Assembly (NCBI GenBank): GCA_949299435.1
Contig: CASGAK010000003.1
Coordinates: 1-35,884, forward strand
Source: an uncultured bacterium
Lineage (GTDB): Bacteria > Cyanobacteriota > Vampirovibrionia > Gastranaerophilales > Gastranaerophilaceae
Direction: 5' to 3'
Length of the DNA: 35,884 nt
Positions 1 through 27,159 of this stretch are shown piece by piece. Under the pieces are notes generated by a model. It made no database searches and was not told the DNA's origin. It saw only the letters and a program-made list of their open reading frames with translations. Numbering within the stretch: the first letter of the stretch is position 1; each line of letters opens with the position of its first letter. The position numbers were made by a program, and so were the translations under genes.

Positions 1-326
1 AGACATGTGTAATGTATGTTTTCAGGAAAATCTTCAGGCATATATTTTTTTATAATTTTTAAATATGGAGTAATGTAGGTGTCTGCAAAAATTTCCGTGT
101 GATCATTTCCACCTATTTCTAGATCCCAATATTTAATCTCCCCATTTTTCAATTCGGAGAGTTTTATTGCTTGCTGCATAATTGAATAGAACTTTTTTAG
201 TTGTGTTGCTGTTTGTTTTTTTTGATAATTTCCTATCAAAGTCGGTAGTGTCATCGCTGCGACTATTCCGATAATACCAAGTGTTATCAGGACTTCAGCC
301 ATTGTAAACGCTTTTTTATTACCCAT
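1..326 (-). CDS. prepilin-type N-terminal cleavage/methylation domain protein (type IV pilin / pseudopilin-like); 3' end cut by window edge
   Basis: Absent from the ORF track because it runs off the window. Reverse-strand translation from the ATG at 326 gives MGNKKA|FTMAEVLITLGIIGIVAAMTLPTLIGNYQKKQ... This has a short basic leader, F at +1, E at +5 and a hydrophobic helix. A GAAGGGA SD lies upstream. The N-terminus is near-identical to the ORFs starting at 15262 and 26834. Confidence 0.8.
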   Translation of the reverse strand, partial: MGNKKAFTMAEVLITLGIIGIVAAMTLPTLIGNYQKKQTATQLKKFYSIMQQAIKLSELKNGEIKYWDLEIGGNDHTEIFADTYITPYLKIIKKYMPEDFPENIHYTC

Positions 327-343
327 AATTTTCCCTTCTTTAT

Positions 344-359
344 TGCCCATATATGGGCA
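344..359. promoter_or_regulatory. perfect 16-bp palindrome TGCCCATATATGGGCA (operator-like)
   Basis: Read directly. It lies between a minus-strand TATAAT (371..376) and the SD of the pilin gene. Its core CCCATATATGGG recurs at 386..397. Confidence 0.5.
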
Positions 360-385
360 GTTATAAGTTGATTATAAATTAAAAT

Positions 386-397
386 CCCATATATGGG
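386..397. promoter_or_regulatory. second copy of the 12-bp palindrome CCCATATATGGG
   Basis: Exact repeat of the core of 344..359, 40 bp away centre to centre. It overlaps the predicted -35 (394..399, minus strand) of the pilin promoter and lies 37 nt upstream of the HTH gene ATG. Confidence 0.5.
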
Positions 398-433
398 TAA
401 TTTTTGTTACAAAATTTGTGGAAATCTTTACAC

Positions 434-709
434 ATGAATGAAAGAGAAAAAATATATTGTAAAGCATTTGGGGAAGTGTTAAGAAAATTAAGGGTTGAAA
501 AAACCGGTAAAAGTGCTTTGTTGTTTTCTTATGAAAATGATATTCCAAAGTCCACTCTCACAAGAATTGAGCGGGGTGAAAATGAAGCACAGTTGATTAC
601 GCTTAAAAAAATTTCGGAAGGGTTCGGCTGGTCTTTAGCAGAATTGTTTTTTAATATTGAAAAGCGTATCCCGTATGATTTTAAAATTTTCGATGATGAG
701 CATTATTAG
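434..709 (+). CDS. XRE (Cro/C1)-family helix-turn-helix transcriptional regulator
   Basis: The track ORF 404..709 begins at a TTG; I prefer the in-frame ATG at 434 (MNEREKIY...). FGEVLRKLRVEKTGKSALLFSYENDIPKSTLTRIERGENEAQLITLKKISEGFGWSLAELF matches the HTH_3 pattern. The gene is divergent from the pilin gene. Confidence 0.8.
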   Translation: MNEREKIYCKAFGEVLRKLRVEKTGKSALLFSYENDIPKSTLTRIERGENEAQLITLKKISEGFGWSLAELFFNIEKRIPYDFKIFDDEHY

Positions 710-721
710 AGGCGAGATTTT

Positions 722-1246
722 TTATTCTGTTTTATAAATTTCTTTCAAGGTTTTTATGTCATATTTTGTTATTTTAAGGACTTTGTCTGTTGTGGGATTC
801 ATTATTGAATAAGGTTCATTTGTGTGTGGTAATCCCAGTGCATGACCTATTTCATGTCGCATAATTTTAGTCAGTTCTAAGTTTGAAAGTTTAATTTTAC
901 TTCCTTCTGCAAATTTTGCGATTTCAATTACTGCCTTTACGTAATTTTTGTTGTTATCTACTTGACTATGTGTCAGACCTACTGCCTGTTTGGAAAAATC
1001 TGATACTTTTTCTGTAAATAATACCGAAATATCTGCTTCGTTTTCATTGTCTACGTATTCAAATTCTACTGTTTTATTTGAATCAGATTCCCAATCGCCA
1101 AAAGCTCGTTTCATAAGATATGCGTTCCGATTATCTTCGATATAGACTTTTATCGGCATTTTCTGCCAGCTTCCTATTTTTTCTACGGCTTGGGCTGTTG
1201 TTGATAAAATTAATAATGTTAGTAGTGTCAGTAATGTTTTTTTCAT
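722..1246 (-). CDS. secreted zinc metalloprotease, metzincin/matrixin-like (copy 1 of 3)
   Basis: Signal peptide MKKTLLTLLTLLILSTTAQA. Zinc motif HEIGHALGLPH (HExxHxxGxxH) followed by a Met-turn SIMNP. GGAGAG SD. Confidence 0.8.
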   Translation of the reverse strand: MKKTLLTLLTLLILSTTAQAVEKIGSWQKMPIKVYIEDNRNAYLMKRAFGDWESDSNKTVEFEYVDNENEADISVLFTEKVSDFSKQAVGLTHSQVDNNKNYVKAVIEIAKFAEGSKIKLSNLELTKIMRHEIGHALGLPHTNEPYSIMNPTTDKVLKITKYDIKTLKEIYKTE

Positions 1247-1256
1247 ATTCTCTCCG

Positions 1257-1790
1257 TTAATATAATTCCATTAAGTTTTTTATATCGTGTTCTGTTATTT
1301 CTTGTCCGAGGATTATGTAAGGGTACATAATGCTTTTTTGAATTTGTGAATGTGGAAGTCCCAGTGCATGTCCTATTTCATGTTTTATTACGATATCCAA
1401 CTCTTCGGGTGTGAATTCTTTTCCTGATTTGGAATGCAGACCTATTGCAATGCTGGATTTGTAGATGTTATTTACCCCCATTTTTGCTTTAGTAAGACCT
1501 GCGGTGTTGTCTGCGAAGGTATCAACCAGATATACGGTTATGTTTGCATAGCCAGAGTGGGGTTTTGAAATAAATGCAAAGCGGACTTTTCCATCTGTTT
1601 TTTCTTCCCATTCTTGAAATCCGGCTTTTATTCTGTTGGTATGTTTATCTGTTTCGTCCAAATAGACTTTAATAGGCATTCTGCTCCAGCCACGTTCTAT
1701 TTTTTCCCACGGATTATCATTTTCAGCGTAGGTCTTTAGTGTTGTCAGTATTAATGAGATAATTAATATCAGTATTGCTTTTGTTTTCAT
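1257..1790 (-). CDS. secreted zinc metalloprotease, metzincin/matrixin-like (copy 2 of 3)
   Basis: Signal peptide, HEIGHALGLPH motif and SIMYP Met-turn. It shares W..MPIKVY with copy 1. The start overlaps the upstream stop by 4 nt. Confidence 0.8.
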   Translation of the reverse strand: MKTKAILILIISLILTTLKTYAENDNPWEKIERGWSRMPIKVYLDETDKHTNRIKAGFQEWEEKTDGKVRFAFISKPHSGYANITVYLVDTFADNTAGLTKAKMGVNNIYKSSIAIGLHSKSGKEFTPEELDIVIKHEIGHALGLPHSQIQKSIMYPYIILGQEITEHDIKNLMELY

Positions 1791-2317
1791 TTGTATATCC
1801 TGTAAATTTCGTTAATTGAATCTTGGGTAATTTTATAGCCTTCTTCTACGGTTGGTTGCATAATACTATAGGGTGTGTTAGTGTGTCCCTGAAGTCCTAT
1901 GGCATGCCCTATTTCATGCTGCATTATAAGGTACAGTAAATCAGGGGGACTTTTTTTACCGTTTTTGTCTAGAAAGCCTATGTCAATATGTGCTTTGATA
2001 AAATAATCCCCATTGTATGAAAATTTTGTAAGGGATTTAGTTTTGTTTGGTGAATAGCTTACTGTGATTTCTGCATTTTCACATGAATTAGCCGTTAAAA
2101 AATTAAAAGTTACTCTATTTTTTATCTGACTTTGCCAGGTTTTAAATGCTTTTTTCATTATTTCAGAATTTGGATTTGGAGGCAGGCAGACTAAAAGCGT
2201 TTTTTTATTCCATTTGATATCTGCTGCTTTTGTCGGTAAAATAGTTATTGCCATAATTGTCAAAATTATTGTCAACTTAAAAAATATATTAAATTTATTC
2301 AAAACACTACCTTTCAC
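1787..2317 (-). CDS. secreted zinc metalloprotease, metzincin/matrixin-like (copy 3 of 3, most divergent)
   Basis: GTG start and a hydrophobic N-terminus ending TKA|AD. HEIGHAIGLQGH motif and SIMQP Met-turn. Confidence 0.75.
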   Translation of the reverse strand: MKGSVLNKFNIFFKLTIILTIMAITILPTKAADIKWNKKTLLVCLPPNPNSEIMKKAFKTWQSQIKNRVTFNFLTANSCENAEITVSYSPNKTKSLTKFSYNGDYFIKAHIDIGFLDKNGKKSPPDLLYLIMQHEIGHAIGLQGHTNTPYSIMQPTVEEGYKITQDSINEIYRIYK

Positions 2318-2344
2318 TGTTTTTTATTGCTTTTCTTTTTTACT

Positions 2345-2641
2345 TTAAAAATGCATATCAAAGCTCGGTGGCATACCGTTCATTTTTTCATCTTCCATAC
2401 GCATTGCAGAGCCTATTGTGAAGCTTTCTGCAAAAATCTTGTTTATTTGGTAATTTATATCCCCGTTAAAGACAGGTTCACCTTCTTCTAAAAATTTGAA
2501 TAGAGGCTCTACTGGTGCTTTAGCTATGTTGCTAAGGGTGTTGCCTGCCTGTTGTAAAGTTTTTTCGCCTATTTCCGGTACCTTTACGTTCATGCCGAAA
2601 GGTTTGTATGGTCGGTTAAATGAAAATTGTGTATCCGTCAT
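2345..2641 (-). CDS. hypothetical protein, 98 aa, no signal peptide, no Cys
   Basis: Clean ORF lying 27 nt upstream of, and co-directional with, the metzincin array. I recognise no motif. Confidence 0.5.
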   Translation of the reverse strand: MTDTQFSFNRPYKPFGMNVKVPEIGEKTLQQAGNTLSNIAKAPVEPLFKFLEEGEPVFNGDINYQINKIFAESFTIGSAMRMEDEKMNGMPPSFDMHF

Positions 2642-2737
2642 TTTTCTCTACCTTAATATTTTTTATACATTTAAGGTATCGGCATATTTTTTTCATAATT
2701 CAGTTTTTTTTAACAAAAATTTACTTTTTTTAATATT

Positions 2738-4114
2738 TTATTTAAGTTTGTCTGTTTTGATTACTACTCCGCTTTCTCTTGTAAAATTTTTGACCATTTC
2801 CAGCAGAATATTTTTATCAAGATTTCTTCTATTTGTTTCTTGGATTAATTCATCAAAGTATTTTTGTTGGTTTTTGGGCGGAAAATCTATTATAAACTCG
2901 TATAAGTTTTCATCTGAGCGATTCCAGTTATCTCGGCCGCATGATAGGGCATAGTTTGATAATTCATTAGGACCAGATTTTGATTTTTGTTTTATATGCT
3001 CAATAGTTACTATTGAAGGACGTAGAATATCATAGGCTATTGCATCAGAGTCAGCAAATCTGTGCTTGGCAATAAATGCACTTGTACTTGTTTCTGAGGT
3101 TGGAAGTTTTTTTAATAAATATTTTATTTTGTTTTTTAAGGCATTATTGGGTATATTCAATGTCATTTGCGTCAGGGCTCTTTCCAGTGATTTGTTACTG
3201 AAATTAATCTTGACAGGCTGTCTGTTTATTGTCTTTATTGCCGTTTCACATAAGCTTGTTATATCTTTTCGGTTTATTACTTCTGTATATTTTTTTATTT
3301 CATTAAGTAAAAGTATTTGAAGTTCGTTTTTTGAATAGGGTTTGTTTTCTGGATCTTTTATTTCACAAAGTCTTAAAATCTCATTTACGGTCTTTTTATC
3401 AATTGGGTTAGAATTGTTAAAATTAGAGTTTGACAGTGGTTTTGTTAGGTTTATGATTTTATATGCAATAAAATCATCTTTTACTGAATTTATTAATCGT
3501 TTTATTTTATATACAAATTCATTATTATCAAAATTGTCGGGTATGTATGCTTTTTCTTCAAGTCTATATTTGGAGATTTTTATCAGCTTTTGGTAAGGGG
3601 CTATCAAATTTTGCGGAAGTTTATCTGATAATTCGTAAAGTTCGTGCAAAATGGGCATTTGTTTTTTCAAAAGTTTATTATTTGCTTTGAAATAAAGTTT
3701 TTTTATTGCTTCTGAAAGTGTTATATTAGGATATTCAAAGGATAAAACGGTAATTCGTTTAAGTACATTTTTTTCAGAAGGGTGGAGATATTCCAAATAA
3801 TTAAGCATTTCTTGAGCAAAGCTGACTATAGGAGCTGAGAAAATCCCGCTCTTTTTTAATTCATCGACTTTGCTATTGCTAAGCATTGGACGACCACAGT
3901 ATATACAATGAATTTTGCGTCTGTTAAGAAGATTTTTAAGATCACTACCGTTTTTTATTCCGGTAAAGGCTATGGGATTATTATTTGATTTAACAAACAC
4001 ATCATTTTTAGTATGCAAATTATTTGGAATCCAATTAACATAGCTGTGATTGCTGTTATAGCCTTTTTTTATATTAGTAATATTTGAAAATATATTAATT
4101 TTTGGACACTGCAT
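2738..4114 (-). CDS. hypothetical 458-aa protein with C-terminal HNH (beta-beta-alpha-Me) nuclease-like motif
   Basis: Long uninterrupted ORF. Residues 372-401, EHIKQKSKSGPNELSNYALSCGRDNWNRSD (nt 2912..3001), have H-14-N-9-N spacing. A lone CIYCG sits at residues 70-74 (CxxC = nt 3896..3907). There is no SD at the ATG. Confidence 0.6.
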   Translation of the reverse strand: MQCPKINIFSNITNIKKGYNSNHSYVNWIPNNLHTKNDVFVKSNNNPIAFTGIKNGSDLKNLLNRRKIHCIYCGRPMLSNSKVDELKKSGIFSAPIVSFAQEMLNYLEYLHPSEKNVLKRITVLSFEYPNITLSEAIKKLYFKANNKLLKKQMPILHELYELSDKLPQNLIAPYQKLIKISKYRLEEKAYIPDNFDNNEFVYKIKRLINSVKDDFIAYKIINLTKPLSNSNFNNSNPIDKKTVNEILRLCEIKDPENKPYSKNELQILLLNEIKKYTEVINRKDITSLCETAIKTINRQPVKINFSNKSLERALTQMTLNIPNNALKNKIKYLLKKLPTSETSTSAFIAKHRFADSDAIAYDILRPSIVTIEHIKQKSKSGPNELSNYALSCGRDNWNRSDENLYEFIIDFPPKNQQKYFDELIQETNRRNLDKNILLEMVKNFTRESGVVIKTDKLK

Positions 4115-4171
4115 AGATTATTAAAACTGATAAATAAAAAACTTGATATTTTGTAAAGAAAAGTAAAAATT

Positions 4172-4810: not shown

Positions 4811-5279
4811 TTTTTAAGCCTTCCGTAATTTTTATATTATCATCTCCGAATGCTTCAAAAGAGTATTTTCTGGAGTCGTCATCCTCGTAACTTACGTTAA
4901 TTTTAATATGATTAAAAGGAATTTCATCTTGAGAAAACTCTGCCCATTCCACAAAAGTAAGTCTTTTCCCCTCGCTGTACTCCCGAAGCTCATCAAGAAT
5001 TGTTTTTACCCCTTCGTTTTCTAATCTGTATAAATCAAAATGATAGATAGGTATTCTCGCGGTATGGTATTCGTTAAGTATTACAAAACTTGGACTTGTT
5101 ACTTTTTCTTTTACATCAAGAGCTTCTGCTACTAATTTTACAAAGGCTGTTTTGCCAGCACCAATTTCTCCGTAAAGACTTACAAAACAACCGTTTTGGG
5201 TAAGGTTAGCAAAACGGTATGCTAAATCTTTAGTATCTTCAAGTGTATTACAAATTTTTTCATAAGTATTGTTGTTCAT
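4800..5279 (-). CDS. tsaE: tRNA t6A biosynthesis ATPase TsaE
   Basis: P-loop GEIGAGKT, plus SPSFVILNEY and HFDLYRL motifs. The track start at 5282 is a TTG; the ATG at 5279 is preferred. Confidence 0.9.
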   Translation of the reverse strand: MNNNTYEKICNTLEDTKDLAYRFANLTQNGCFVSLYGEIGAGKTAFVKLVAEALDVKEKVTSPSFVILNEYHTARIPIYHFDLYRLENEGVKTILDELREYSEGKRLTFVEWAEFSQDEIPFNHIKINVSYEDDDSRKYSFEAFGDDNIKITEGLKNDG

Positions 5280-12088: not shown

Positions 12089-12976
12089 CTATTTTTCACA
12101 ATCAATTTGCTCGGGACTGTTAATATCGAATTTATTGTGATAAATACAAGCTACCGCATAGTAAAAAGCTAAACTTATAATTAAATTAAAATACATCATT
12201 ATAGTTGTCATCATTGTAATAGTTGTAACATTGTTTAAAAGATCTTTTATGGACATAAAATCCATACCGCTAAGTCCTGCAATTATACCGATTATAAAAA
12301 ATATTATAAAAAATGTGGTAAAACCTAAAATGCAAAACAGAATAATAATTCCTATATATTTTAAATATAGAACAATACTTGGCAAAAATATTTTGGGTAA
12401 ATACGTAAATAACAATAAAGGAGAGAAGTTACCTTTAGCAGTATAATTTTTAGCAAAAGACATTAATATAAAAGGTATGCTGAAATATATTGATACCATA
12501 ATAGCCAACAATAAAACTATTCCGGGAATGTGGAATCCGGGAATAAAACAGGAAAGTAAAGCTAAAATTACAAAAAGAATAATATATATTCCCCAAACTA
12601 TTCCGAACCCAATCCATTTCCAAAAATGTTTAAACATTTTTAAGTTGATTTCAGGCATAATATCAAGAGCATTAACTTTTTCCTCATCGGTTTGATTATC
12701 TTTCCATACCAAATATTTAAGTGAATTGTGCATGAAATGGATTATATAAATACCAATAGCCAAACTGATAATAGTACATAAAATACCCAAAAGCGGATAT
12801 TCAACATAAATATACCTGTAAATATCAGATTGTGAGCCGGAATATTCATTATTTAAAGTAGCAATACTGCAAGGTAATGAAATCAACAAAGAAAGCAATA
12901 CCAAGTACATATGCTTAGCAAAAATGTTTTTTCCCGTATAAATTTTTTTAAAGCCTTCTAAAAATCCACCAGCCAT
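12089..12976 (-). CDS. polytopic membrane protein of unknown function (paralog A)
   Basis: 295 aa with multiple hydrophobic segments. Shares MAGGFLEGFKK, HFMHNSLKY..WKD, NALDIMPEIN, FAKNY..GN.SP and FYYA motifs with the next gene. AAGGAGAG SD. Confidence 0.7.
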   Translation of the reverse strand: MAGGFLEGFKKIYTGKNIFAKHMYLVLLSLLISLPCSIATLNNEYSGSQSDIYRYIYVEYPLLGILCTIISLAIGIYIIHFMHNSLKYLVWKDNQTDEEKVNALDIMPEINLKMFKHFWKWIGFGIVWGIYIILFVILALLSCFIPGFHIPGIVLLLAIMVSIYFSIPFILMSFAKNYTAKGNFSPLLLFTYLPKIFLPSIVLYLKYIGIIILFCILGFTTFFIIFFIIGIIAGLSGMDFMSIKDLLNNVTTITMMTTIMMYFNLIISLAFYYAVACIYHNKFDINSPEQIDCEK

Positions 12977-12991: not shown

Positions 12992-13792
12992 TTAAATTTC
13001 TCGTTCTAACTCAACTTTTCTATAGTAAATTCCTGCAATTGCATAGTAAAAAATCAGAATAGACACCATTTCTATATATATGGCAGCTGCGATAGCTGCA
13101 GAAATTAAAAAAGCGTTTTGTGGTGCTATCTTGTATATAGGTATACCCAGTACAATAAGTATTCCGACTTGTAGTATTTTGCAACAAATTTCAAATACAA
13201 TATATTTAAGTCCCAAAATAAAGGTAGAAGTAAAAACTTTAGGAACTAATGATAATATCAAAAATGGTGAACAATTTCCACTGGTCTTGTAGTTTTTTGC
13301 GAATCCGGAAATAATATAATTTATACTGATTAAATAGCATAAAAAAACAATTAAACTTATTGGCGTAAATATAAACAATCCTAATAATGGAATTTTGCAA
13401 AATATCCACATAAGATAAACTAATACAAAAGTTATAATTCCCCAAACTATGTAAAATGTTGATATCGCACCGAAATGACTGAATAAATCAGCATTAACTT
13501 CAGGCATTATATCCATAGCATTAACTCTATTAAGGTCAGTTCTCGTGTCTTTCCAGATAGCAAATTTAATTGCGTTATGTAAAAAATGTGTAAAATATAA
13601 TAAAAATAAAACTGCAGAAACTATATAAAGAAAACATAAAAACGGTAATATAGCTTGATTCAGCCCTTCTTTATTTGAATATTGATAAAGAGTCATTAAA
13701 AATGCTAAAATATATAAAAATACATGTTTTTTTGGCAGATTTTTCCCTTTGTAGCATTTTCTTAATCCTTCAATAAATCCGCCACCACTCAT
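12992..13792 (-). CDS. polytopic membrane protein of unknown function (paralog B)
   Basis: The track start at 13801 is a GTG abutting the SD. The ATG at 13792, with AGAGGTG 6 nt upstream, gives MSGGGFIEGLRK, which is colinear with paralog A. Confidence 0.7.
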   Translation of the reverse strand: MSGGGFIEGLRKCYKGKNLPKKHVFLYILAFLMTLYQYSNKEGLNQAILPFLCFLYIVSAVLFLLYFTHFLHNAIKFAIWKDTRTDLNRVNAMDIMPEVNADLFSHFGAISTFYIVWGIITFVLVYLMWIFCKIPLLGLFIFTPISLIVFLCYLISINYIISGFAKNYKTSGNCSPFLILSLVPKVFTSTFILGLKYIVFEICCKILQVGILIVLGIPIYKIAPQNAFLISAAIAAAIYIEMVSILIFYYAIAGIYYRKVELEREI

Positions 13793-13884
13793 CTTTTTCA
13801 CCTCTTATTAAAATAATAATAAACTGTTATAGTATACCAGTTTAAAATATTAAATACATACTCTGTTTATAGTATAATAGTTTT

Positions 13885-14977
13885 ATGGAAACCGAATTAA
13901 AACAATCGATAAATAATATAAAACCTCGTATAGAAAAAATAAAGGAGTGTCTTTGACCCTGCTGGCTTGGAGGCAAAATTAGCTACGCTTGAAAAAGAAA
14001 TGCAAAGTCCTGATATTTGGACAGATAATCATCGTGTATCAAAATTGGGAGCTGAAATTAAGGAGATAAAAGAAAATTTATCACTTTTAACCAAATGGAA
14101 CGGAATAATAGAAGATGCAGAGGTTGCATTAGAAATGTCAGATTCAGAGCTGATATCAGAAAGTTATACCTCAGTACAAAACCTTATAAAAGAGATAGAT
14201 AAATTTGAAATCCGCCTTATGCTAAGCGGAGAATACGATGAAGCAGATGCGATAATGACAATAAATGCAGGAGCAGGAGGCACCGATGCTCAAGATTGGG
14301 CAAGTCTTTTGTTGCGAATGTATATGCGATGGGCTGAAAATAAAAATTGGCAAGTAGATTTACTGGATAAACTTGACGGAGAAGAAGCCGGTATTAAGTC
14401 TGCAACAATAAAAATTTCAGGGAAATATGCATTTGGCTATGCAAAAGCAGAAAAAGGCGTACATCGTCTGGTTCGCATATCACCGTTTAATGCTAACGGT
14501 AAACGCCAAACAAGTTTTGCTTCAGTTGAAGTATCTCCTATAATTGAAGATTTTGAAAAAACAATAACAATTCCCCCAGAAGAGTTGGAAATAGATACAA
14601 TGCGTTCAGGCGGAGCCGGCGGACAAAATGTAAATAAAGTAGAAACAGCAGTTCGTATTTTGCATAAACCAACAGGTATTGTCGTTAAATGTCAGCAGGA
14701 ACGCTCTCAATTGCAAAATAAAGAAAATGCCATGCAAATTTTAGCCTCAAAACTTCTAGCGATAAGACAAGCAGAGCATGAAAAAAAATTAGCGGAACTA
14801 AAAGGTGAAAATGTTGACATAAACTTTGGCTCTCAAATTCGCTCATACGTATTCCACCCCTATAAAATGGTAAAAGATCATCGTACAAATTGTGAAGTAG
14901 GCAACGTAGACAGTGTAATGGACGGCGATATTGATATTTTTATAGATACCTATTTAAAATCTCAAGCTCAGGTATAA
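13885..14977 (+). CDS. prfB: peptide chain release factor 2, requires +1 programmed ribosomal frameshift: join(13885..13953,13955..14977)
   Basis: Frame 0 reads ATG13885...AAG GAG TGT CTT TGA (stop at 13954..13956). Shifting +1 after CTT gives GAC CCT GCT GGC TTG GAG..., which is the frame of the track ORF at 13967. SPF ([14 protein letters not shown]) and GGQ ([11 protein letters not shown]) motifs are present. Confidence 0.95.
13942..13957 (+). other. RF2 autoregulatory +1 frameshift site (internal SD AAGGAG, 3 nt, CTT TGA C)
   Basis: Sequence AAGGAGTGTCTTTGAC read directly. It has the same architecture as the classic prfB recoding site. Confidence 0.9.
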
Positions 14978-14979: not shown

Positions 14980-15195
14980 TTAGTCAAAGTCGAATAATTC
15001 TTTCGGGTGAACTTTTAAGGTATCAGCAATAATTTTAACCTTTGATACTGTAAGGTCTGTTTTGGCTATTTCGATTAAACTAATCATCGAACGTGAAATT
15101 TGTTCAGATACGGCAAGATCGTCCTGAGTCATACCTTTTTGCTTTCTGATGCGTTTTAGATTTTTTGCAAATTTTTGTAAATATTCCTTGTCCAT
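14980..15195 (-). CDS. XRE (Cro/C1)-family helix-turn-helix transcriptional regulator
   Basis: 71 aa. FAKNLKRIRKQKGMTQDDLAVSEQISRSMISLIEIAKTDLTVSKVKIIADTLKV matches the HTH_3 pattern. The gene is divergent from the pilin-like gene at 15262. Confidence 0.8.
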   Translation of the reverse strand: MDKEYLQKFAKNLKRIRKQKGMTQDDLAVSEQISRSMISLIEIAKTDLTVSKVKIIADTLKVHPKELFDFD

Positions 15196-15213
15196 TCAAA
15201 AATTGTTAGCTAT

Positions 15214-15246
15214 ACTAGCAATTAATACAACTAGTACCACTAGCAA
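15214..15246. promoter_or_regulatory. three ACTAG(C/T)A repeats (ACTAGCAA at 15214 and 15239, ACTAGTA at 15230) in the HTH/pilin intergenic region
   Basis: Read directly. The first copy overlaps a candidate pilin -10 (TATACT 15211..15216, with TTGTCC 15188..15193 at 17-nt spacing). Confidence 0.35.
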
Positions 15247-15261
15247 AAATAGGAGGAATTT

Positions 15262-15924
15262 ATGAAACAGAAAGCCTTTACACTTGCAGAAGTGCTGATA
15301 ACCTTAGGTATAATCGGAGTAGTTGCAGCTATGACAATTCCGACGTTAATCGGTAAATATCAGGAAAAGCAATTTAAGACAGCATATAAAAAAGTGTATT
15401 CAGAATTATCTCGAGCATTCCAAGAAGCTCTTGTAGATCAGCAATTTACCAGGATTACACAATATGAAGGGGCATCTACAGAAGAAGAATTTAATATTTT
15501 AAAATCAAAATTTAAAGTATCATTGGATTGTGGTAAAACAGACATATATCGTTGCTGGAAAAAAGGCGATACTTTATGTGGAGGATCATGTCAATCAGGT
15601 AATGCGTCTGATGGTATTGATATGGAGAATGGTAATCCAGCTGACAATGATTCGCTTTGTTTTATAGATATAAGTGGTCAAAGCTGGTGCTCTTATTCTG
15701 CTATAGAAAATATATTTGTAGTGGATACAAACGGATTTGCAAACCCTAATCAATTTGGAAAGGACAGATGGATTTTTACTTTTGCTGATGAAGATAATAA
15801 TAGAGCTAGTAATTATCACGACTACAAAAAAGTAATACCCTATTATACAAGGGATATTTTAACCCTTACATCTTCTTTTTGCAAACACCCGCCTTGTTAC
15901 TATCAGTCTTGGCTTTTAGATTAA
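15262..15924 (+). CDS. prepilin-type N-terminal cleavage/methylation domain protein (pilin/pseudopilin-like), Cys-rich C-terminal domain
   Basis: N-terminus MKQKA|FTLAEVLITLGIIGVVAAMTIPTLIGKYQ. VVDTNGFANPNQFGKDRWIFTF pseudopilin-type motif. 8 Cys in the mature part. AGGAGG SD. Confidence 0.85.
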   Translation: MKQKAFTLAEVLITLGIIGVVAAMTIPTLIGKYQEKQFKTAYKKVYSELSRAFQEALVDQQFTRITQYEGASTEEEFNILKSKFKVSLDCGKTDIYRCWKKGDTLCGGSCQSGNASDGIDMENGNPADNDSLCFIDISGQSWCSYSAIENIFVVDTNGFANPNQFGKDRWIFTFADEDNNRASNYHDYKKVIPYYTRDILTLTSSFCKHPPCYYQSWLLD

Positions 15925-18601: not shown

Positions 18602-18637
18602 TATAATCTTTTTATTAAAGAAAGGAGAATGTTTTAT

Positions 18638-19264
18638 ATGAAAAAACTTTTAGTGTTATCAATGATATTAGCATTTTCATTTGGAGTATCGGTCAATGCA
18701 GAAGATGCTGATACTTATTCAGGAAAAATATTACAAAAACATACTCAAAAAATTATGGACGCTGAAAGAAATTTTAATAGTATTCAAAAGCAAAATTACG
18801 ATGAATATTTAAAAAAACGGGAGCAGCGTGATGCTGATTTGCAGAAAAAAATGAATGAAATTCAACAAAAACAAGAACAGGATAAGCAGGAAATTAATGA
18901 AAGAGTTGAGGAGTTAAATAAATCTATTGAAGACATAAATCAGCAACGTCAAGAGCAAATGAGAAAGCAAGTAGAAGCAATACAAAATTACCAAGAAGCA
19001 AAAAATAAAGAAATGAATCAAAAAGTGGAAGAATTGAATAAATCCATTGATAAAGCAAAACAAAATTATAATATGGAAATGATTAAAAAAATGGAAGCAA
19101 TAGAAACTCAACAGTCAGAACGTCAACAAGAGATGGAGCAGCGAGTTGATGAGTTTAATGAATCAGTTGAAAAATTAAAACAGCAAAATGATGAAGCCGC
19201 AAAAGAAAGGCAACAAAAAATAGAACGTAAAAAAGAGCTTTGGAAAGAATTAATTACAGAGTAG
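18638..19264 (+). CDS. secreted, highly charged coiled-coil repeat protein
   Basis: The ATG at 18638 is well spaced from the AAAGGAG SD; the track start at 18629 is too close to it. Signal peptide MKKLLVLSMILAFSFGVSVNA. The rest is E/K/Q-rich with 40-aa repeats. Confidence 0.65.
   Translation: MKKLLVLSMILAFSFGVSVNAEDADTYSGKILQKHTQKIMDAERNFNSIQKQNYDEYLKKREQRDADLQKKMNEIQQKQEQDKQEINERVEELNKSIEDINQQRQEQMRKQVEAIQNYQEAKNKEMNQKVEELNKSIDKAKQNYNMEMIKKMEAIETQQSERQQEMEQRVDEFNESVEKLKQQNDEAAKERQQKIERKKELWKELITE
18905..19264 (+). repeat. three tandem 120-bp (40-codon) intragenic repeats
   Basis: Units begin GTTGAGGAGTTAAATAAATCTATTGA (18905), GTGGAAGAATTGAATAAATCCATTGA (19025) and GTTGATGAGTTTAATGAATCAGTTGA (19145), exactly 120 nt apart. 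Confidence 0.6.
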
Positions 19265-19280
19265 GAAAGGAGTTAGATTA

Positions 19281-19598
19281 ATGAAAAAAACTTTAGTAGC
19301 ATTGATGGCAATGGTTATGTTGAGTTCAACAGCAGTGTATGCTTCAGATACACCGATTTCAGATTGGATTAACAGCAAAACTTCAAAAATTACACAAAAA
19401 GAACAATCTGCAGCAGCTAAGGCAGAAGCAAGAAAGAAAAAACAACAAGAAAAAATTGCAAAACAAAAAGCAAAACAAGCTGAGGCAAAGAAAAAAGCTG
19501 CAGAAAGACAAGCTGCAAGAGAAAAGAAAGCCAAAGAGCATAAACAAAAAGTAGAAAAGAAAAAATCATTACTAAAAGAACTTTTCTCAGCAGATTAA
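19281..19598 (+). CDS. secreted Lys/Ala/Glu-rich low-complexity protein, 105 aa
   Basis: Signal peptide MKKTLVALMAMVMLSSTAVYA and an AAGGAG SD. The C-terminus EKKKSLLKELF resembles the ERKKELWKELI end of the preceding protein. Confidence 0.6.
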   Translation: MKKTLVALMAMVMLSSTAVYASDTPISDWINSKTSKITQKEQSAAAKAEARKKKQQEKIAKQKAKQAEAKKKAAERQAAREKKAKEHKQKVEKKKSLLKELFSAD

Positions 19599-21927: not shown

Positions 21928-21930
21928 AGG

Positions 21931-23262
21931 CTATACTTCCTCAGGATCTAATACTGAAATAACACAATTATTTATATCAAGGTATTTTTTGATTGTTGCG
22001 TTCAAATCGTCAATTGTAATACTGTCTAAATCCTCTAAATATTGTTCAACGAGTTTTAAATCTTCGCATACGGTCATATAATACCCGATCGTTTCTCCGA
22101 TTTCAGATACCGTTTCAGCAGAATATGCAAAACGTGTTTTTATCCGCTTTTTCGCTTTGTTGAGCTCGTCTTCGGTAATTCTTATTTCTGTTAATTCTTT
22201 TAATTCTTTTTTTATTAACTCAAGAGCCAAGTCTTTTTTATCGGGTCTGAAATTGGCTTGAATAAAGAAATTATCTCCGTCTTTAAATTGATAATGTTCT
22301 GCACTTACCATATTGAACAGAGCATCTGTACGTTTTTCAATCAAATTCTGATACATTCTGGAACTTGTACTGTCGCCTAGAATAATACTTATTAGATCCA
22401 ATTCAATTGTTGATTTGATATCACAAGCTCTTGGACCTAGCCAGCCAAAAATTGCATAAGACGTATTTACATGAGCTTTTTGCTCAAAATATTTTGTAGA
22501 TTTTACAGGCTTGTCAATTTCATTATTTTTTTTAGGAGCATTAGCTCTGCCTTTGAAATCAAATTCTTTTTCAACTTTTTTCAAAATTTCATTTTTATCA
22601 AAATCACCTACAATTATTGTTGTGATATTCTCAGGAGAGTAGAATGTCTGATAATAATTCATTATATCATCACGAGTAACTTGAGAAATTATCTCTGGAG
22701 TGCCTATTACATCTCGTTTATAAGGGTGTGAGGTGTACATGTTGAAATTGCAAGTGTTATATACTTTGGTCCAAGGCTGATCTTTTCGCATTCTTATTTC
22801 TTCGATTACGACATGACGTTCTCTTTTTTCTTTAACATTTTGATCATTTAAATCAAATGCAGGTCCGATTTCTTCTTCAGGTAATATCGGATCAAGCATC
22901 ATATCAGCATGCAGTTCTATTGCTAAATCTAAATTGGAATTATTTTCTCCCTTAGGCAAAGTTACATAATAAAAAGTGTAATCTTTCCAGGTAGCAGCGT
23001 TTACAATAGCACCTTTAGCTTCAAGAATTTTGTCAAATTCTCCGGCTTTATGTTTATGTGTGCCTTTGAACATCAGATGTTCCAGAAAATGTGAAATCCC
23101 GTTAATTTTATCATCTTCGTTTATAGATCCTGTTTTCACCCAAGAACTGACATTTACTAAATCCCCCTCTTTGTGAGCTAAAACTATTTTATGACCGTTT
23201 TCGCGTTCATATATTTCAACTTCATTTGTAAGGTATGGATATTTAACGGTAGATTTTTTCAT
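21931..23262 (-). CDS. M16 (pitrilysin) family zinc peptidase
   Basis: Inverted zinc motif HFLEHLMFKGT (HxxEH). 443 aa. GGAGAAAG SD. Confidence 0.88.
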   Translation of the reverse strand: MKKSTVKYPYLTNEVEIYERENGHKIVLAHKEGDLVNVSSWVKTGSINEDDKINGISHFLEHLMFKGTHKHKAGEFDKILEAKGAIVNAATWKDYTFYYVTLPKGENNSNLDLAIELHADMMLDPILPEEEIGPAFDLNDQNVKEKRERHVVIEEIRMRKDQPWTKVYNTCNFNMYTSHPYKRDVIGTPEIISQVTRDDIMNYYQTFYSPENITTIIVGDFDKNEILKKVEKEFDFKGRANAPKKNNEIDKPVKSTKYFEQKAHVNTSYAIFGWLGPRACDIKSTIELDLISIILGDSTSSRMYQNLIEKRTDALFNMVSAEHYQFKDGDNFFIQANFRPDKKDLALELIKKELKELTEIRITEDELNKAKKRIKTRFAYSAETVSEIGETIGYYMTVCEDLKLVEQYLEDLDSITIDDLNATIKKYLDINNCVISVLDPEEV

Positions 23263-23333
23263 AAAACTTTCTCCTGATAACTTTTTTATTTAAGTATACA
23301 TCAAAAAATAATTTTTTGTTGTATCATAAGAGT

Positions 23334-24014
23334 ATGATAGAAAGATTAAAAAACAAAGTAATAGTATCGGTACAAGCAATGCCTTCAGAGCCTTTGTATT
23401 TGGAAAAATGCATGGTTGCGATGATGAAATCAGTTGTTAAAGGTGGAGCAGGCGGACTTCGAGTTGCGGGAGTCAGAGATGTTGTAAATGCAAAAAGACT
23501 TTTTGATATCCCAGTAATCGGAATTACAAAGCCTGAAGTAATCCCTCCTAATTGGCAGGAAATAGTTTATATAACCCCTGAATTAAAGGACGTAATATCT
23601 TTAGTCAATGCAGGTGCTGATATAATTGCCTTTGATGGAACCCAAAGAAAACGTCCCAACGGTGCCACATTAGAAGAAATTATTAAATATATAAAAATAA
23701 ATAAAAGAGTTTCAATGGCAGATATTTCTACTGTGGAAGAAGGGATAAAAGCAGCAGAAATGGGGGCTAATATTTTATCGACAACTCTTTCAGGGTATAC
23801 ATTGGAGTCACCTTTGAAAAATGACGGACCTGATTTTGAATTATTAAAAGAGCTGGTTGAAAAAACAAATGTACCTATTGTATTAGAAGGCAGGATATGG
23901 GAGCCAGAAGAAGTAGATAAAGCGTTCGAATTAGGTGCACATTGTGTCGTAATCGGGTCTGCTATTACTCGTCCGCAGTTAATTACAAAACGTTTTGTAC
24001 AGAGAAAAAAATAA
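23334..24014 (+). CDS. nanE: N-acetylmannosamine-6-phosphate 2-epimerase
   Basis: VIVSVQA, VIGITK, AFDGTQRKRP, SMADISTVEEG, TTLSGYT, LEGRIWEPEE and VVIGSAITRPQLITKRF motifs. The track start at 23316 is a TTG; the ATG at 23334 is preferred. Confidence 0.88.
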   Translation: MIERLKNKVIVSVQAMPSEPLYLEKCMVAMMKSVVKGGAGGLRVAGVRDVVNAKRLFDIPVIGITKPEVIPPNWQEIVYITPELKDVISLVNAGADIIAFDGTQRKRPNGATLEEIIKYIKINKRVSMADISTVEEGIKAAEMGANILSTTLSGYTLESPLKNDGPDFELLKELVEKTNVPIVLEGRIWEPEEVDKAFELGAHCVVIGSAITRPQLITKRFVQRKK

Positions 24015-24023
24015 GAGGATTAT

Positions 24024-24959
24024 ATGTTAAAGGCTTTAGCAATTGATATTGGCGGTACAAAAATTTATAACACCATTGTCAATGAACTTGGTGAAATTAA
24101 AAGTGAAGTCGAAAAACGTTCTACGCCTAAAACTTTTGAAGAAATAAAAAAAGTTTTAAGTGAAATAATAAAAAAATATGAAAACGATGCAGATGTGATT
24201 GCTATAGCAACAGCCGGGGCTGTAAATAATGAGAATACAGGAGTTATAGGCTCGACCGGGAATATAGCAGAAGGCTATTCAAATTTAGATTTCCAAAGTT
24301 TGAGTAAAAAAAGAGTTTTTGTAGAAAATGATGCAAATGCAGCCGCTTGGGCAGAGCATATAATCGGAGCTTCAAAAAATTGTGCAGACAGTATAATGTT
24401 GACTCTTGGAACGGGAGTTGGCGGGGGAATTATTGTAAATAACAAACTTTTGAAAGGCAAAAACGGTGCAGCCGGTGAAATGCATTTTAAAATGTACCCT
24501 GATAAAAGACGTCTGTGTACATGTGGTGCTTACGATTGCTTTGAGGCATATGCATCAGGTACTGGGCTTAAAAAAACTGCTATTGAAATTATCGGCAATC
24601 CAAATGTGACAACATATGACGTCATTAATGAGGTTAATGCCGTGTTAGCTCACCCTGAAAAATCAATTGGAATATTAAAAACAGAAATCCTGCAAGCTGC
24701 TTCTGAAGATAAATATGTGAAAGCCTTTTTAAAGTGGCAAGATGATATTCTTGCAGGTTGTATAGGGCTTGCAAATATTTTTGATACCTGTATGATTGTC
24801 CTTTCAGGATCTATGGCGGAATTTGTCGATACTGAATATATTGAAAATGAATTAAATAAAGAAATAGTGACCACCTATACAAAAGTCAGAAAAGCAACTG
24901 CAGGAAATTATTCCGGTATGATAGGTGCAGCACTGCTGTCGCTTGGAGTTGGAATTTAG
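24024..24959 (+). CDS. ROK-family sugar kinase (N-acetylmannosamine/glucose kinase-like)
   Basis: DIGGTKI, ENDANAAAWAE, LGTGVGGGI and the Zn motif CTCGAYDCFEAYASG. Lies immediately downstream of nanE. Confidence 0.85.
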   Translation: MLKALAIDIGGTKIYNTIVNELGEIKSEVEKRSTPKTFEEIKKVLSEIIKKYENDADVIAIATAGAVNNENTGVIGSTGNIAEGYSNLDFQSLSKKRVFVENDANAAAWAEHIIGASKNCADSIMLTLGTGVGGGIIVNNKLLKGKNGAAGEMHFKMYPDKRRLCTCGAYDCFEAYASGTGLKKTAIEIIGNPNVTTYDVINEVNAVLAHPEKSIGILKTEILQAASEDKYVKAFLKWQDDILAGCIGLANIFDTCMIVLSGSMAEFVDTEYIENELNKEIVTTYTKVRKATAGNYSGMIGAALLSLGVGI

Positions 24960-24977
24960 CGGGGAGAGTTTTATTAT

Positions 24978-25196
24978 ATGGGAAAGGCTAAAAAAAGAAG
25001 TTTACACCTTGGGATAAATGATCAGTTTGCTAAATTAACCAGATTAGAGGCTGTTCAGTTGGTTGTTGAAAAACTTAAAAAAGGGGATAATGATGTGTAT
25101 GCTTTAATAACTTTGTTTGGACTTTCTGCTGAAGAAATTCTTGAGGGTGGTGCAAGTTATGAAGCTGTTAAAGGGCTTGGAGGCTTATTAAATTGA
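24978..25196 (+). CDS. hypothetical small protein, 72 aa
   Basis: GGGGAGAG SD. Its stop overlaps the TTG start of the next ORF. No firm motif. Confidence 0.45.
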   Translation: MGKAKKRSLHLGINDQFAKLTRLEAVQLVVEKLKKGDNDVYALITLFGLSAEEILEGGASYEAVKGLGGLLN

Positions 25197-26113
25197 TATC
25201 TAAAAGCGGTGTCATTACTGTAATCAGAAATTCCAGATGGTATTCATCGGATATGACGGTGTTTTCCTGTCTAGTTTGTTTTTTGTATGCCCTTTCTCAA
25301 AACGGTGATGTTATAAACGGTCTAATTGCCTGTGTCGGTATTCTTTTTGCTCATATGGCGACTAATCTCTATGATGACTACGATGATTACAAAAAACTTT
25401 GTATGGATCCGAGATTTAGTGAATTTGCCCCGAAGGTTAAATGTGATTATTTGAAAGCTAATTTGGCTACGACAAATGATTTATTAACGGTTATTATTGC
25501 TTATTGTCTAATAGCGTTGCTATGTGGTTTTATCCTGTTTTTGATGACGGACTTGCAGGTGTTGATTTTAGCATTTTTAGGTGCCTTGATTGTGTTGGGT
25601 TATCCTAAATTTTCAAGACTGGGATTGAGTGAAATCGCTGTAGGTATAGCGTTTGGACCGCTACTTTTTGAGGGAATGTATTTTACTATGACAGAGAATT
25701 TTTCTTTTGAAGTCTTTATACTTTCTCTTGCTATTGTTATGTTTACGGTCGGGGTTATGTATAACCATACTATTTTGGATTTTGAAAGTGATAGATTCGC
25801 AGGGAAAATGACATTGGTACAAAAAATTGGCAGTAAAAATAAAGCTATGCTTGGTATATGGATAATTTATTCTTTAGGGTATATTTTCCTTTTGCTTTTT
25901 TCTTTATTTACCAAAAAATATTTATGTAATCTTGGTTTTTTGTCCCTGCCTTTTGTGTTGATTTTGTATAAATCATTAAAAGATTATAATTCATCAGCTT
26001 ATTATGAGCGTGACGGGTTGTATTTATCAATTTTGAAAGGCTCAGCCAAATTAATGGCATTGTTTTCTTTTCTGATAAGTGTGGGGTTGTTTATATCAAT
26101 TTTTATAATTTAA
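25193..26113 (+). CDS. UbiA-family aromatic prenyltransferase (MenA-like)
   Basis: Polytopic. Asp-rich motif NLYDDYDDY after TM2 and a second D-containing loop (ILDFESDR). The start is uncertain (TTG 25193 or ATG 25253). Confidence 0.75.
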   Translation: MISKSGVITVIRNSRWYSSDMTVFSCLVCFLYALSQNGDVINGLIACVGILFAHMATNLYDDYDDYKKLCMDPRFSEFAPKVKCDYLKANLATTNDLLTVIIAYCLIALLCGFILFLMTDLQVLILAFLGALIVLGYPKFSRLGLSEIAVGIAFGPLLFEGMYFTMTENFSFEVFILSLAIVMFTVGVMYNHTILDFESDRFAGKMTLVQKIGSKNKAMLGIWIIYSLGYIFLLLFSLFTKKYLCNLGFLSLPFVLILYKSLKDYNSSAYYERDGLYLSILKGSAKLMALFSFLISVGLFISIFII

Positions 26114-26834
26114 TCGGATAATCCTCAGGAATTTCCCAGCCGTTGCATTCGATCATAGCACCGCATGTGATTGCCTGAGAGTACCCTTGTGCCTGTCCGG
26201 TAGTTGCTTTTGCTCCGTTTTCGCAGATATCAATTAATCCGTCACGACTTAAATGATTTTGACAAAAGCTCTTTTTCTCCCGATAATCCATTGTACTTGT
26301 TACGAAATATTTTTTATTATCTTCGACAATCAGGTTGAATGTAAAGACATTTTTGCCCCAAATATATTTGTTTGCTCCTGTTTCAAGAAATACGTAAAAG
26401 GTGCCTCTTCTTTGAGATTTATTTATTGTGGCTCCGTTGTTAAATATAATCGCTATCCCATTTTTTAAAATGTATTTAGGCAGAAATAAATTTTTAGAAG
26501 TATCGTTTTTATAACTGTATATTTTGTTGCAGCAAGGATCTTTTGAGTTATCTTCTATAGCAGTTGGGCATTCATAACTGACTTCCATATAAGGTGCAAT
26601 ATAGTTCTTAAAAGTATTTCTTTCCCCGTTTTCTATACCCCATTGGTCAGGTGTATCATTTTTAACTGAAGACAGTAGTATTGCTTGATTAAGCATACTG
26701 ACAGCTTTTTTTAGTTTAGCTGCTGTTTCCTTTTTTCTATAACCTTGCATAACATTAGGTAGTGTCATAGCAGCGACTATTGCGATAATTCCAAGAGTAA
26801 TAAGTACTTCTGCCATAGTAAAACCTTTTTTCAT
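26103..26834 (-). CDS. prepilin-type N-terminal cleavage/methylation domain protein (pilin/pseudopilin-like), Cys-rich C-terminal domain
   Basis: The ATG at 26834 follows AAGGAGG. N-terminus MKKG|FTMAEVLITLGIIAIVAAMTLP. WGKNVFTFNL motif. 7 Cys in the mature part. The track start at 26879 adds 15 unlikely residues. Confidence 0.85.
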   Translation of the reverse strand: MKKGFTMAEVLITLGIIAIVAAMTLPNVMQGYRKKETAAKLKKAVSMLNQAILLSSVKNDTPDQWGIENGERNTFKNYIAPYMEVSYECPTAIEDNSKDPCCNKIYSYKNDTSKNLFLPKYILKNGIAIIFNNGATINKSQRRGTFYVFLETGANKYIWGKNVFTFNLIVEDNKKYFVTSTMDYREKKSFCQNHLSRDGLIDICENGAKATTGQAQGYSQAITCGAMIECNGWEIPEDYPIKL

Positions 26835-26882
26835 TTCTATCCTCCTTAATTCAACTGCTGAGCAAGATTTAATAGGCATGTA

Positions 26883-26900
26883 TGTGATTAATTAATCACA
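26883..26900. promoter_or_regulatory. perfect 18-bp palindrome TGTGATTAATTAATCACA (operator-like)
   Basis: Read directly. It lies just downstream of a minus-strand TATAAT (26912..26917) and upstream of the pilin SD. It also abuts the -35 position of the plus-strand TATAAT at 26922..26927. Confidence 0.55.
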
Positions 26901-26934
26901 GATTAATCATAATTATAAACATATAATCAGATTT

Positions 26935-27159
26935 ATGCAAGATTTAAAAAAATATGAAGTTAAAATTCGTAACAGAATAAGAAAATATAGATTGCAAAAG
27001 GGGTTGTCCCAAGAGAAACTTGCCGAGTTGGTGGACAGCAGCCGAGAACATATCAATCGTATGGAAAGCGGTAAAGATAATATAAGTCTAATGTATTTTA
27101 TACGATTGGCTGAAGTGTTTGAGGTATCATTAGATGAGCTTGCAGGATATAAAAAATAA
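26935..27159 (+). CDS. XRE (Cro/C1)-family helix-turn-helix transcriptional regulator
   Basis: 74 aa. IRNRIRKYRLQKGLSQEKLAELVDSSREHINRMESGKDNISLMYFIRLAEVFEVSLDEL matches the HTH_3 pattern. No SD. A TATAAT ends 7 nt before the ATG, so the mRNA may be leaderless. Confidence 0.8.
   Translation: MQDLKKYEVKIRNRIRKYRLQKGLSQEKLAELVDSSREHINRMESGKDNISLMYFIRLAEVFEVSLDELAGYKK

Follow-up and report, generated by a model that had tools for sequence, protein, structure and literature searches.

Minimal XRE regulators paired head-to-head with single DUF6613 pilin-like genes in Gastranaerophilales

Introduction

Three pilin-like genes in a 35,884-bp stretch of a Gastranaerophilales chromosome (contig CASGAK010000003.1, positions 1 to 35,884, ~32% G+C; this whole stretch is called the window below) each stand head-to-head with a gene for a minimal helix-turn-helix (HTH) protein of the XRE type. 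This arrangement raises the question of whether such pairs are accidents of gene order or regulatory units, and, if they are units, what the small protein does to the gene it faces. The Gastranaerophilales (Melainabacteria) are gut relatives of the cyanobacteria, uncultured and non-photosynthetic, and their cell-surface biology is essentially unknown. The original prediction for this DNA was an amplified modular unit in which each pilin variant has its own switch. We find that the pair recurs across these genomes, that the DNA between its two genes is under stronger constraint than the proteins it would control, and that regulators and pilin heads appear to be combined freely in evolution.

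Pairing of XRE genes with pilin-like genes

All three prepilin genes and their three divergent HTH_3 partners are present at the positions and spacings first given for them (Table 1). A six-frame motif scan of the window finds exactly three FT[LM]AEVLITLGII N-termini, and a profile search of all window open reading frames (ORFs) finds exactly three HTH_3-like proteins, with PF01381 (HTH_3) E-values of 4e-6, 7e-11, and 1.5e-17. Each pilin gene is head-to-head with one of the three HTH genes across gaps of 107 bp (cassette 1), 66 bp (cassette 2), and 100 bp (cassette 3), where the start of pilin 3 is position 26834 and the mechanically called ORF start at 26879 is not the gene start. The chance of this three-of-three adjacency within the window is ~1e-7 (3 x 110/(2 x 35884) per pilin, cubed).

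The same arrangement is common in related genomes. Starting from the pilins, we analyzed 80 Gastranaerophilales loci (843,803 bp) containing 120 pilin-motif genes, 108 of them with enough flanking DNA, and 41 XRE-type ORFs recognized by a profile built from the window HTHs. A divergent XRE gene lies within 300 bp of 33 of the 108 pilin genes, compared with ~0.8 expected from random placement (41 x 300 / (2 x 843,803) per pilin), and 34 of the 41 XRE ORFs are divergent at 65-291 bp from a pilin start. Pfam HTH_3 was independently assigned to 35/36 pilin-adjacent partners. Starting from the regulators, a metagenome scan with HTH3 alone yielded 80 loci; six HTH3 relatives among them are at least 50% identical and have enough upstream DNA, and all six face a pilin gene. 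One relative at 40% identity also does so, while more distant matches, on higher-GC contigs, do not. Since close HTH3 relatives face pilins and distant ones do not, the association is specific to an XRE clade in these genomes. Across more than 40 loci with differing neighbors, the element in common is the pilin gene and neither lysA nor another neighbor.

In a few other cases the gene facing the pilin is a MerR gene or encodes a member of a second family of small proteins. These small proteins (67-85 aa) occupy the same divergent slot in L014 (5631-5867), L024 (5621-5878), L079 (5460-5690), and L094 (2181-2384), and one pilin facing this family is 74% identical to pilin 2. Although they look HTH-like, they have only a weak DUF6471 match and no support from PDB or PHROG, and we do not call them regulators.

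Table 1. Features of the three pilin-like/XRE cassettes, in positions of the window
Feature	Position	Strand	Description
Pilin-like gene 1	1..326	-	first 108 codons, runs off the window edge; DUF6613
Control region 1	327..433		two CCCATATATGGG copies, 346-357 (O2) and 386-397 (O1), 40 bp apart
HTH1	434..709	+	91 aa, XRE/HTH_3
HTH2	14980..15195	-	71 aa, XRE/HTH_3
Control region 2	15196..15261		palindrome GCTAtacTAGC 15208-15218; ACTAGCAA at 15214-15221 and 15239-15246
Pilin-like gene 2	15262..15924	+	220 aa, 8 Cys; conserved subfamily homologous to DUF6613
Pilin-like gene 3	26103..26834	-	243 aa, 7 Cys; DUF6613
Control region 3	26835..26934		18-bp perfect palindrome TGTGATTAATTAATCACA 26883-26900, then 8-bp palindrome GATTAATC 26901-26908
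HTH3	26935..27159	+	74 aa, XRE/HTH_3

Control regions and their conservation

The original prediction reported strong Shine-Dalgarno (SD) sequences for the pilin genes and none for the HTH genes. Both statements hold: the SDs are GAAGGGA, AGGAGG, and AAGGAGG for pilins 1, 2, and 3, and no SD precedes any HTH start. It also placed a symmetric or repeated motif in each intergenic region. These motifs are real, and those of regions 1 and 3 are unique in the window, with no further copy of CCCATATATGGG even allowing 2 mismatches and none of TGTGATTAATTAATCACA even with 3. The motif of region 2 is weak when taken alone.

The promoter hexamers of regions 1 and 3 were assigned by eye. In region 1, the two operator copies flank a pilin-strand TATAAT (371-376), one covering the -35/spacer and one positioned 13 nt downstream. 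Region 2 contains a promoter-like TTGTCC-17-TATACT (15188-15216, called by a consensus scanner), the -10 of which lies inside the palindrome. The putative pilin promoter of region 3, on the minus strand, consists of a -35 TTGCAT (26935-26940, over the HTH3 ATG), 17 nt, and a -10 TATAAT (26912-26917); the 18-bp palindrome begins 11 nt past this -10, over or just after the likely start site. A putative HTH3 -10 TATAAT (26922-26927) lies 7 nt before the ATG, and its poor -35 abuts the palindrome. On this reading, the promoters of each pair would be closely packed or overlapping. In each region the motif covers the likely pilin -10 or follows it closely, and in all three cases this placement predicts that the pilin promoter is repressed.

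Across the family, palindromes are enriched over shuffled sequences. This statistic is weak, however, and we therefore relied on phylogenetic footprints instead. Locus 3 (UbiA / pilin / HTH / lysA) is conserved in L081, L083, and L085, with identities of 75, 64, and 61% for the pilin and 80, 77, and 84% for the HTH. Locus 2 (prfB / HTH / pilin / PHP) is found in L095 (pilin 70%, HTH 96%), and locus 1 (M10 peptidases / HTH / pilin) in L058, where the HTH is 69% identical and the pilin 84% over an N-terminal fragment only. An HTH1 orthologue also occurs in L013 (66% identity). The HTH proteins, at 77-96%, are conserved on par with housekeeping neighbors, and the pilins less so, at 61-75%. This synteny, together with the counts from both search directions, bears out the claim that the unit is recurrent and conserved.

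The control regions are the best-conserved DNA of these loci. They are ~95-100% identical in orthologous loci, with region 2 matching L095 at ~60/66 positions, while in the flanking genes, where the amino acid is unchanged, the identity of third codon positions is only 0.47-0.65 (0.53-0.65 for the L095 comparison). The operator-like sequence attributed to each regulator lineage is thus nearly invariant where synonymous sites are nearly saturated. In a four-species alignment of region 3, hardly a position changes between the HTH ATG and the far end of the 18-bp palindrome, and beyond it, up to the pilin SD, the sequence is scrambled. The operator / -10 / operator layout is also kept in HTH1-type loci carrying unrelated pilin heads: the window has CCCATATATGGG ... 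TATAAT ... CCCATATATGGG, and L013 has TCCATATATGGGA ... TGCTATAAT ... TCCCACTTATGGGA. Of all the evidence that the shared regions act as regulatory DNA, these footprints are the strongest.

Exchange of regulators and pilin heads

The idea of an amplified unit, in the sense of duplication of whole pairs, is not supported. Among 36 pairs, similarity between HTHs is uncorrelated with similarity between pilin heads (Mantel r=-0.045, p=0.68), and several closely related HTHs (normalized similarity 0.64-0.76) are joined to unrelated heads (0.03-0.11). We reject co-duplication of HTH and pilin on the basis of this negative Mantel test. A comparison of cassette 1 with L013 suggests how heads are exchanged: DNA identity is ~70% in the HTH gene and ~60% in the control region and first ~70 pilin codons, and then falls to 24-44%. 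This profile places the apparent breakpoint of the head swap at the end of the conserved N-terminal helix.

The occupants of a given chromosomal slot also vary. The PHP slot holds pilin 2 and HTH2 in the window, another HTH with a different head in L077, and a different head with no HTH in L030 (prfB/PHP). The counterpart of locus 1 in L028 lacks both the HTH and the M10 peptidases, and pilin-2-type genes also turn up in other settings, some with a small divergent gene and some without. Since HTH and head similarity are uncorrelated and the slots vary, the unit appears to be modular and to evolve by replacement and recombination, not by whole-pair duplication.

Pilin-like proteins of the DUF6613 family

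Pilin 1 is truncated by the window edge, and its full product of 249 aa was taken from L090 (193..942), where it is labelled DUF6613. All three pilins score above the cut-offs of Pfam N_methyl (PF07963) and NCBIfam TIGR02532, and all have the F+1 and E+5 of a class III signal peptide. Position -1, canonically Gly, is Gly in pilin 3 and Ala in pilins 1 and 2 and most relatives. The Cys counts of the two complete products agree with those originally given.

Assignment to DUF6613 (PF20318) is direct for pilin 1 (25.0 bits, cut-off 24.3). Pilin 3 alone scores 19.6 bits, and 120/120 of its homologues among the matches listed carry PF20318. Pilin 2 has no direct DUF6613 match, and profile-profile alignment with hhalign gives a probability of 100% (E=3.9e-41). 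On this profile comparison, pilin 2 is unambiguously homologous to DUF6613, including a common D.NG..PN..GKD.F.F block; its subfamily is better conserved than the rest. The GK(D/N)..FTF motif noted at the outset is indeed shared, but it is better written GK(D/N)x(0-2)[FW]xF and is part of this family-wide block. Matches to the named pilin equivalogs GspG/H/I, ComGC-GF, PilA, and PpdD were all N-terminal and far below the curated NCBIfam cut-offs, and the motif first described as pseudopilin-type could not be linked to any of these families.

Structure prediction supports a type IV pilin fold. AlphaFold models of pilin 3 (predicted local distance difference test, pLDDT, 87.4; predicted template modeling score, pTM, 0.85; alpha1 at residues 7-59) and pilin 2 (pLDDT 91.7, pTM 0.82, alpha1 at residues 8-58) both have a 51-53-residue N-terminal helix, a head built of beta-sheet, and a short C-terminal part in which cysteines are conserved. 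The top Foldseek matches in PDB are weak (E 0.07-0.1) and are full-length pilins: FimA (3sok), PAK (1oqw), and gonococcal pilin (1ay2), with FimA best for pilin 3 and PAK best for pilin 2. Sequence matches to solved structures cover the N-terminal helix only. The models therefore support the architecture of a type IV pilin, the head of which is not closely related to any solved structure.

The family is large. A scan of one genome per species gave at least 578 relatives, almost all in Candidatus Gastranaerophilales / Melainabacteria metagenome-assembled genomes, with a few bins otherwise labelled. Against 1.84 billion representatives, the family profile matched 21,554 clusters at 50% identity with E<=1e-3, the weakest of which may reflect the generic pilin N-terminus only, and 4,606 with E<=1e-30. 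Given the density of 3 pilin genes per 36 kb in the window and 40 extra copies in the ~0.8 Mb of flanks of the 80 loci, we infer dozens of paralogues per ~2-Mb genome, so that a hyper-diverse pilin-fold family fills a notable share of these small genomes. As first noted, no pilus or type II secretion system assembly genes occur in the window by annotation and Pfam labels; pilA/B/C/T/D genes have been reported in Gastranaerophilales (PMC5877343). Cleavage and methylation by a prepilin peptidase, and assembly by a type IV pilus or type II secretion machine of the same genome, are expected of type IV pilins and pseudopilins; for the DUF6613 proteins, incorporation into a filament is a prediction.

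In L030 (2488-2865), and also in L045, L047, L059, and L078, a G+C-rich repeated element lies directly upstream of pilin genes. It is in frame with the pilin gene, has a pseudo-N-terminus 'AFTLAEGATHV...', and holds the palindrome GCTACGCACGTAGC; it is absent from the window cassettes. This in-frame element is probably the cause of many over-long gene calls (300-430 aa) in the pilin family.

A model for local repression

HTH1, HTH2, and HTH3 consist of the DNA-binding domain alone, with no sensor domain. Among the relatives, no candidate start is preceded by an SD in 24/33 XRE genes. A -10 hexamer ends 4-9 nt (mostly 6-7) before the ATG in 19/26 short XRE genes (<=92 aa), compared with 55/403 control ORFs and 0/10 longer (~105 aa) XREs. 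Because the -10 lies 6-7 nt before the ATG and an SD is missing, the mRNAs of most short XRE genes are probably leaderless. Judged by its own -10, HTH3 is probably translated from a leaderless mRNA; HTH1 and HTH2 have no good -10 at this distance.

Two further features of XRE genes were seen outside the window. A second pilin-adjacent class (~104-114 aa, with a C-terminal helical extension) has mostly normal SDs and no -10 beside the ATG, and is found in L023, L025, L026, L037, L041, L055, L059, L062, and L078 (10121-10465). A recurrent (T/A)GTCAA lies ~18-24 nt before the start codon of short XRE genes and 5-8 nt upstream of the -10 in L002, L009, L016, L035, L042, L057, L060, L068, L077, and L078, and in none of the three window cassettes; its spacing is similar to the distance at which operators of restriction-modification (R-M) controller proteins sit (PMC2632904).

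From the gene arrangement and the position of the motifs, we consider it probable, with real room for doubt, that each XRE protein acts locally as a sensor-less repressor of the pilin-like gene it faces and also regulates its own gene. The unit would comprise a monocistronic type IV pilin-like gene, encoding a class III signal peptide, a ~53-residue helix, and a variable Cys-containing DUF6613 head, and a divergent minimal Cro/C-protein-like XRE gene (71-91 aa). Their shared region of 66-107 bp would carry one or two copies of a palindromic operator specific to the lineage. An XRE dimer would bind its own operator, placed on the pilin -10 and start site or a little beyond them, repressing the pilin gene while autoregulating the XRE gene, the mRNA of which would probably be leaderless for HTH3 and most short relatives. 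Since the regulator has no ligand domain, output would probably be set by its level. Control of this kind could produce threshold or bistable ON/OFF behavior, or depend on an antagonist or protease, so that members of a large, diversifying family of pilin-like surface proteins may be gated one by one. DNA binding by the XRE proteins, the sign of regulation, and their biological role are predicted from these features.

Several observations weigh against this model. About two-thirds of pilin family members have no XRE partner, and HTH-less syntenic loci exist for all three slots (the lysA slot in L020, the PHP slot in L030, and locus 1 in L028). The regulator is therefore dispensable for a pilin gene as such, and the claim that each variant has its own switch stands for about one-third of the family. 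The consensus promoter scanner called only the region 2 promoter, and it is the motif of region 2 that is unimpressive alone (palindrome z=1.2, with the two ACTAGCAA copies within chance). Palindromes are only marginally more common upstream of HTH-paired than unpaired pilins (z 1.13 vs 0.70, p=0.046). The gene lysA lies 75 bp downstream of HTH3 on the same strand, and since this linkage is kept in all orthologous loci, HTH3 may have a second or a different target. Finally, Ala(-1) in pilins 1 and 2 leaves their processing by prepilin peptidase unproven.

Local repression could be extended to a scheme for the whole cell surface, which we offer as speculation and think unlikely to be correct in full. 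Gastranaerophilales would run a transcription-factor-based system of surface variation, with dozens of complete pilin-like genes per genome, about one-third of them locked by a private, sensor-less, leaderless Cro/C-protein-like bistable switch. Cells would stochastically display subsets of heads without DNA rearrangement, and the library would be renewed by recombination that swaps heads (or regulator/promoter modules) at the alpha1-coding segment. If such private ON/OFF switches are real, they would constitute a new route to surface heterogeneity, via cis-linked minimal repressors in place of DNA inversion or gene conversion, and would give a first functional handle on DUF6613. The regulator/operator pairs are small, numerous, and apparently orthogonal, which makes them candidate parts for synthetic biology and a data set for XRE recognition codes.

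Alternative explanations

The XRE proteins could instead be activators of the divergent pilin gene, or dual activator/repressors like R-M controller (C) proteins, so that the pilin gene is OFF until the regulator accumulates. We regard this as rather unlikely, although several features fit it: the XREs are the size of C proteins, 'Control_protein' of R-M systems is the best PADLOC model for all three, and the leaderless geometry and two-site layout resemble C-protein circuits (PMC2632904). In our reading, the poor -35 of the putative HTH3 promoter beside the palindrome is also like that of activator-dependent promoters. The position of the motifs is the main difficulty, since all three lie over or downstream of the best pilin -10, where a bound protein would repress. 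In addition, the pilin -10 hexamers are near consensus and XRE-less pilin genes exist, so the pilin promoters probably work without an activator.

A second alternative is that the XREs have nothing to do with pilin expression. The pair would be the remnant of a mobile, phage-derived, defense, or toxin-antitoxin-like cassette, and the XRE would regulate itself or another neighbor such as lysA. XRE proteins are typical of mobile elements, and the window HTHs match phage repressor PHROGs and defense-system HTH models. One chromosomal slot can hold different pilin/HTH combinations across species, and HTH3 keeps its linkage to lysA. The genomic setting nevertheless makes this improbable. There is no recombinase or integrase in the window, and a search for direct or inverted repeats flanking the three cassettes gave only low-complexity chance repeats; the neighbors are housekeeping genes in conserved synteny, and it is the pilin gene that is the common denominator over the more than 40 loci. 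The pilins have no PADLOC match, the HTH matches are generic, and only 3 relatives occur in 2.9 million viral contigs (IMG/VR), for which reasons we reject a phage, defense, or toxin-antitoxin origin. A toxin-antitoxin module with an XRE antitoxin was rejected in its own right, since the genes are divergent, unlike a toxin-antitoxin operon, and the partner has a pilin fold without a toxin or defense match.

Chance adjacency or an annotation artefact, in which small AT-rich HTH-like ORFs lie beside an abundant gene family, has a negligible probability: at ~1 pilin gene per 12-20 kb some adjacency is expected, but the pairing counts (33 against ~0.8), the reciprocal 6/6, the HTH_3 E-values down to 1e-17, and the 77-96% conservation of the HTH proteins between species refute it.

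We also considered control of the pilin genes by a riboswitch or other RNA and rejected it, since Rfam at gathering thresholds gave no match in the window or near the pilins of 9 loci.

Comparison with known systems

All components of the cassette belong to known types: a local HTH_3 regulator that has a dyad operator, a protein of type IV pilin fold, and a C-protein-like leaderless design. The closest likeness is to the C proteins of R-M systems (C.PvuII, C.AhdI, C.Esp1396I). Like the cassette HTHs, these are 70-100 aa with an HTH_3 domain only, and palindromic sites, in many cases a pair, immediately precede their own gene. Their genes lack an SD and are expressed from leaderless mRNA under autoregulation, the last two being predictions for the cassette HTHs. 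C-protein mRNAs are known to be leaderless, and C-protein homologues are known outside R-M systems (PMC2632904). In contrast to C proteins, no restriction endonuclease or methyltransferase gene adjoins any of the three cassettes or is found in the orthologous loci, and the presumed target is divergent, not co-transcribed downstream. Whereas C genes have no recognizable -10 (PMC2632904), a clear TAAAAT/TATAAT -10 precedes the ATG here. The operators of the three window cassettes also differ from GACT...AGTC C-boxes. Having no restriction endonuclease, the cassette falls outside the R-M controller family.

Cro/CI and tetR/tetA share with the cassettes a small repressor gene back-to-back with its target, a short shared region, and dyad operators. 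The lambda cI mRNA from PRM is leaderless. Unlike lambda cI, the cassettes have no prophage context, and their regulators have no C-terminal oligomerization, cleavage, or ligand domain. Unlike tetR/tetA, the regulator is not of the TetR family, and the target is a single structural gene for a surface protein.

The window pilins resemble type IV pilins and pseudopilins in their class III signal peptide, ~53-residue alpha1, beta-sheet head, and conserved Cys pairs. They differ in the larger mature protein (~24 kDa), in mostly having Ala(-1), and in the extreme expansion of the family; the genes do not form pil or gsp operons but stand alone at sites dispersed among housekeeping genes. Lineage-specific expansions of pilin-like proteins include the DUF1559 / H-X9-DG proteins of Planctomycetes and families in Elusimicrobia and Lentisphaerae. 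These resemble DUF6613 in that a genome holds dozens of paralogues in which the prepilin N-terminus is conserved and the head varies, but the head family and the phylum differ, and we know of no report of dedicated XRE partners for any of them.

Antigenic and phase variation of pilins by Neisseria pilE/pilS, shufflons, and invertible fimbrial promoters likewise involves variant heads behind a conserved 5' segment and head exchange. Unlike these systems, the window cassettes have no silent cassettes, recombinase, or invertible repeats that we could find. Each copy is, in contrast to pilE/pilS, a complete gene with its own promoter and SD, so that variation, if any, would be transcriptional. Given only chance repeats and no recombinase in the window, we rejected invertible promoters, recombinational variation, and transposon flanks.

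Literature searches found no paper on XRE-pilin pairs, on DUF6613, or on pilin expansions in Melainabacteria. The systematic pairing of each minimal XRE regulator with one pilin-like gene appears to be undescribed, as do the size of the DUF6613 expansion and the mix-and-match evolution of regulator and head.

Gene neighborhood of the cassettes

The remaining genes of the window are housekeeping genes, including glyS, prfB, rph, lysA, cdaA, tsaB/E, an acetolactate synthase-type thiamine pyrophosphate enzyme, and uracil-DNA glycosylase, among others. The prfB ORF as mechanically called (13967-14977) has a TTG start. Upstream of it, CTTTGAC at 13951-13957 (+) is the classic +1 programmed-frameshift site of release factor 2, and the true prfB start is probably further upstream, in a different frame.

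Adjoining HTH1, at 722-2317 (-), are three tandem paralogous genes for secreted Peptidase_M10 proteins (matrixin-like, HEIGHALGLPH). This trio is present in L058 and missing from L028, where synteny is otherwise kept. Two tandem paralogues without a Pfam match, both multi-pass membrane proteins, are encoded at 12089-12976 (-) and 12992-13801 (-), and adjacent signal-peptide coiled-coil proteins rich in Gln/Glu/Lys at 18629-19264 (+) and 19281-19598 (+). The gene at 2738-4114 (-) encodes a 458-aa protein with a C-terminal HNH domain as its sole match, and is duplicated in L028.

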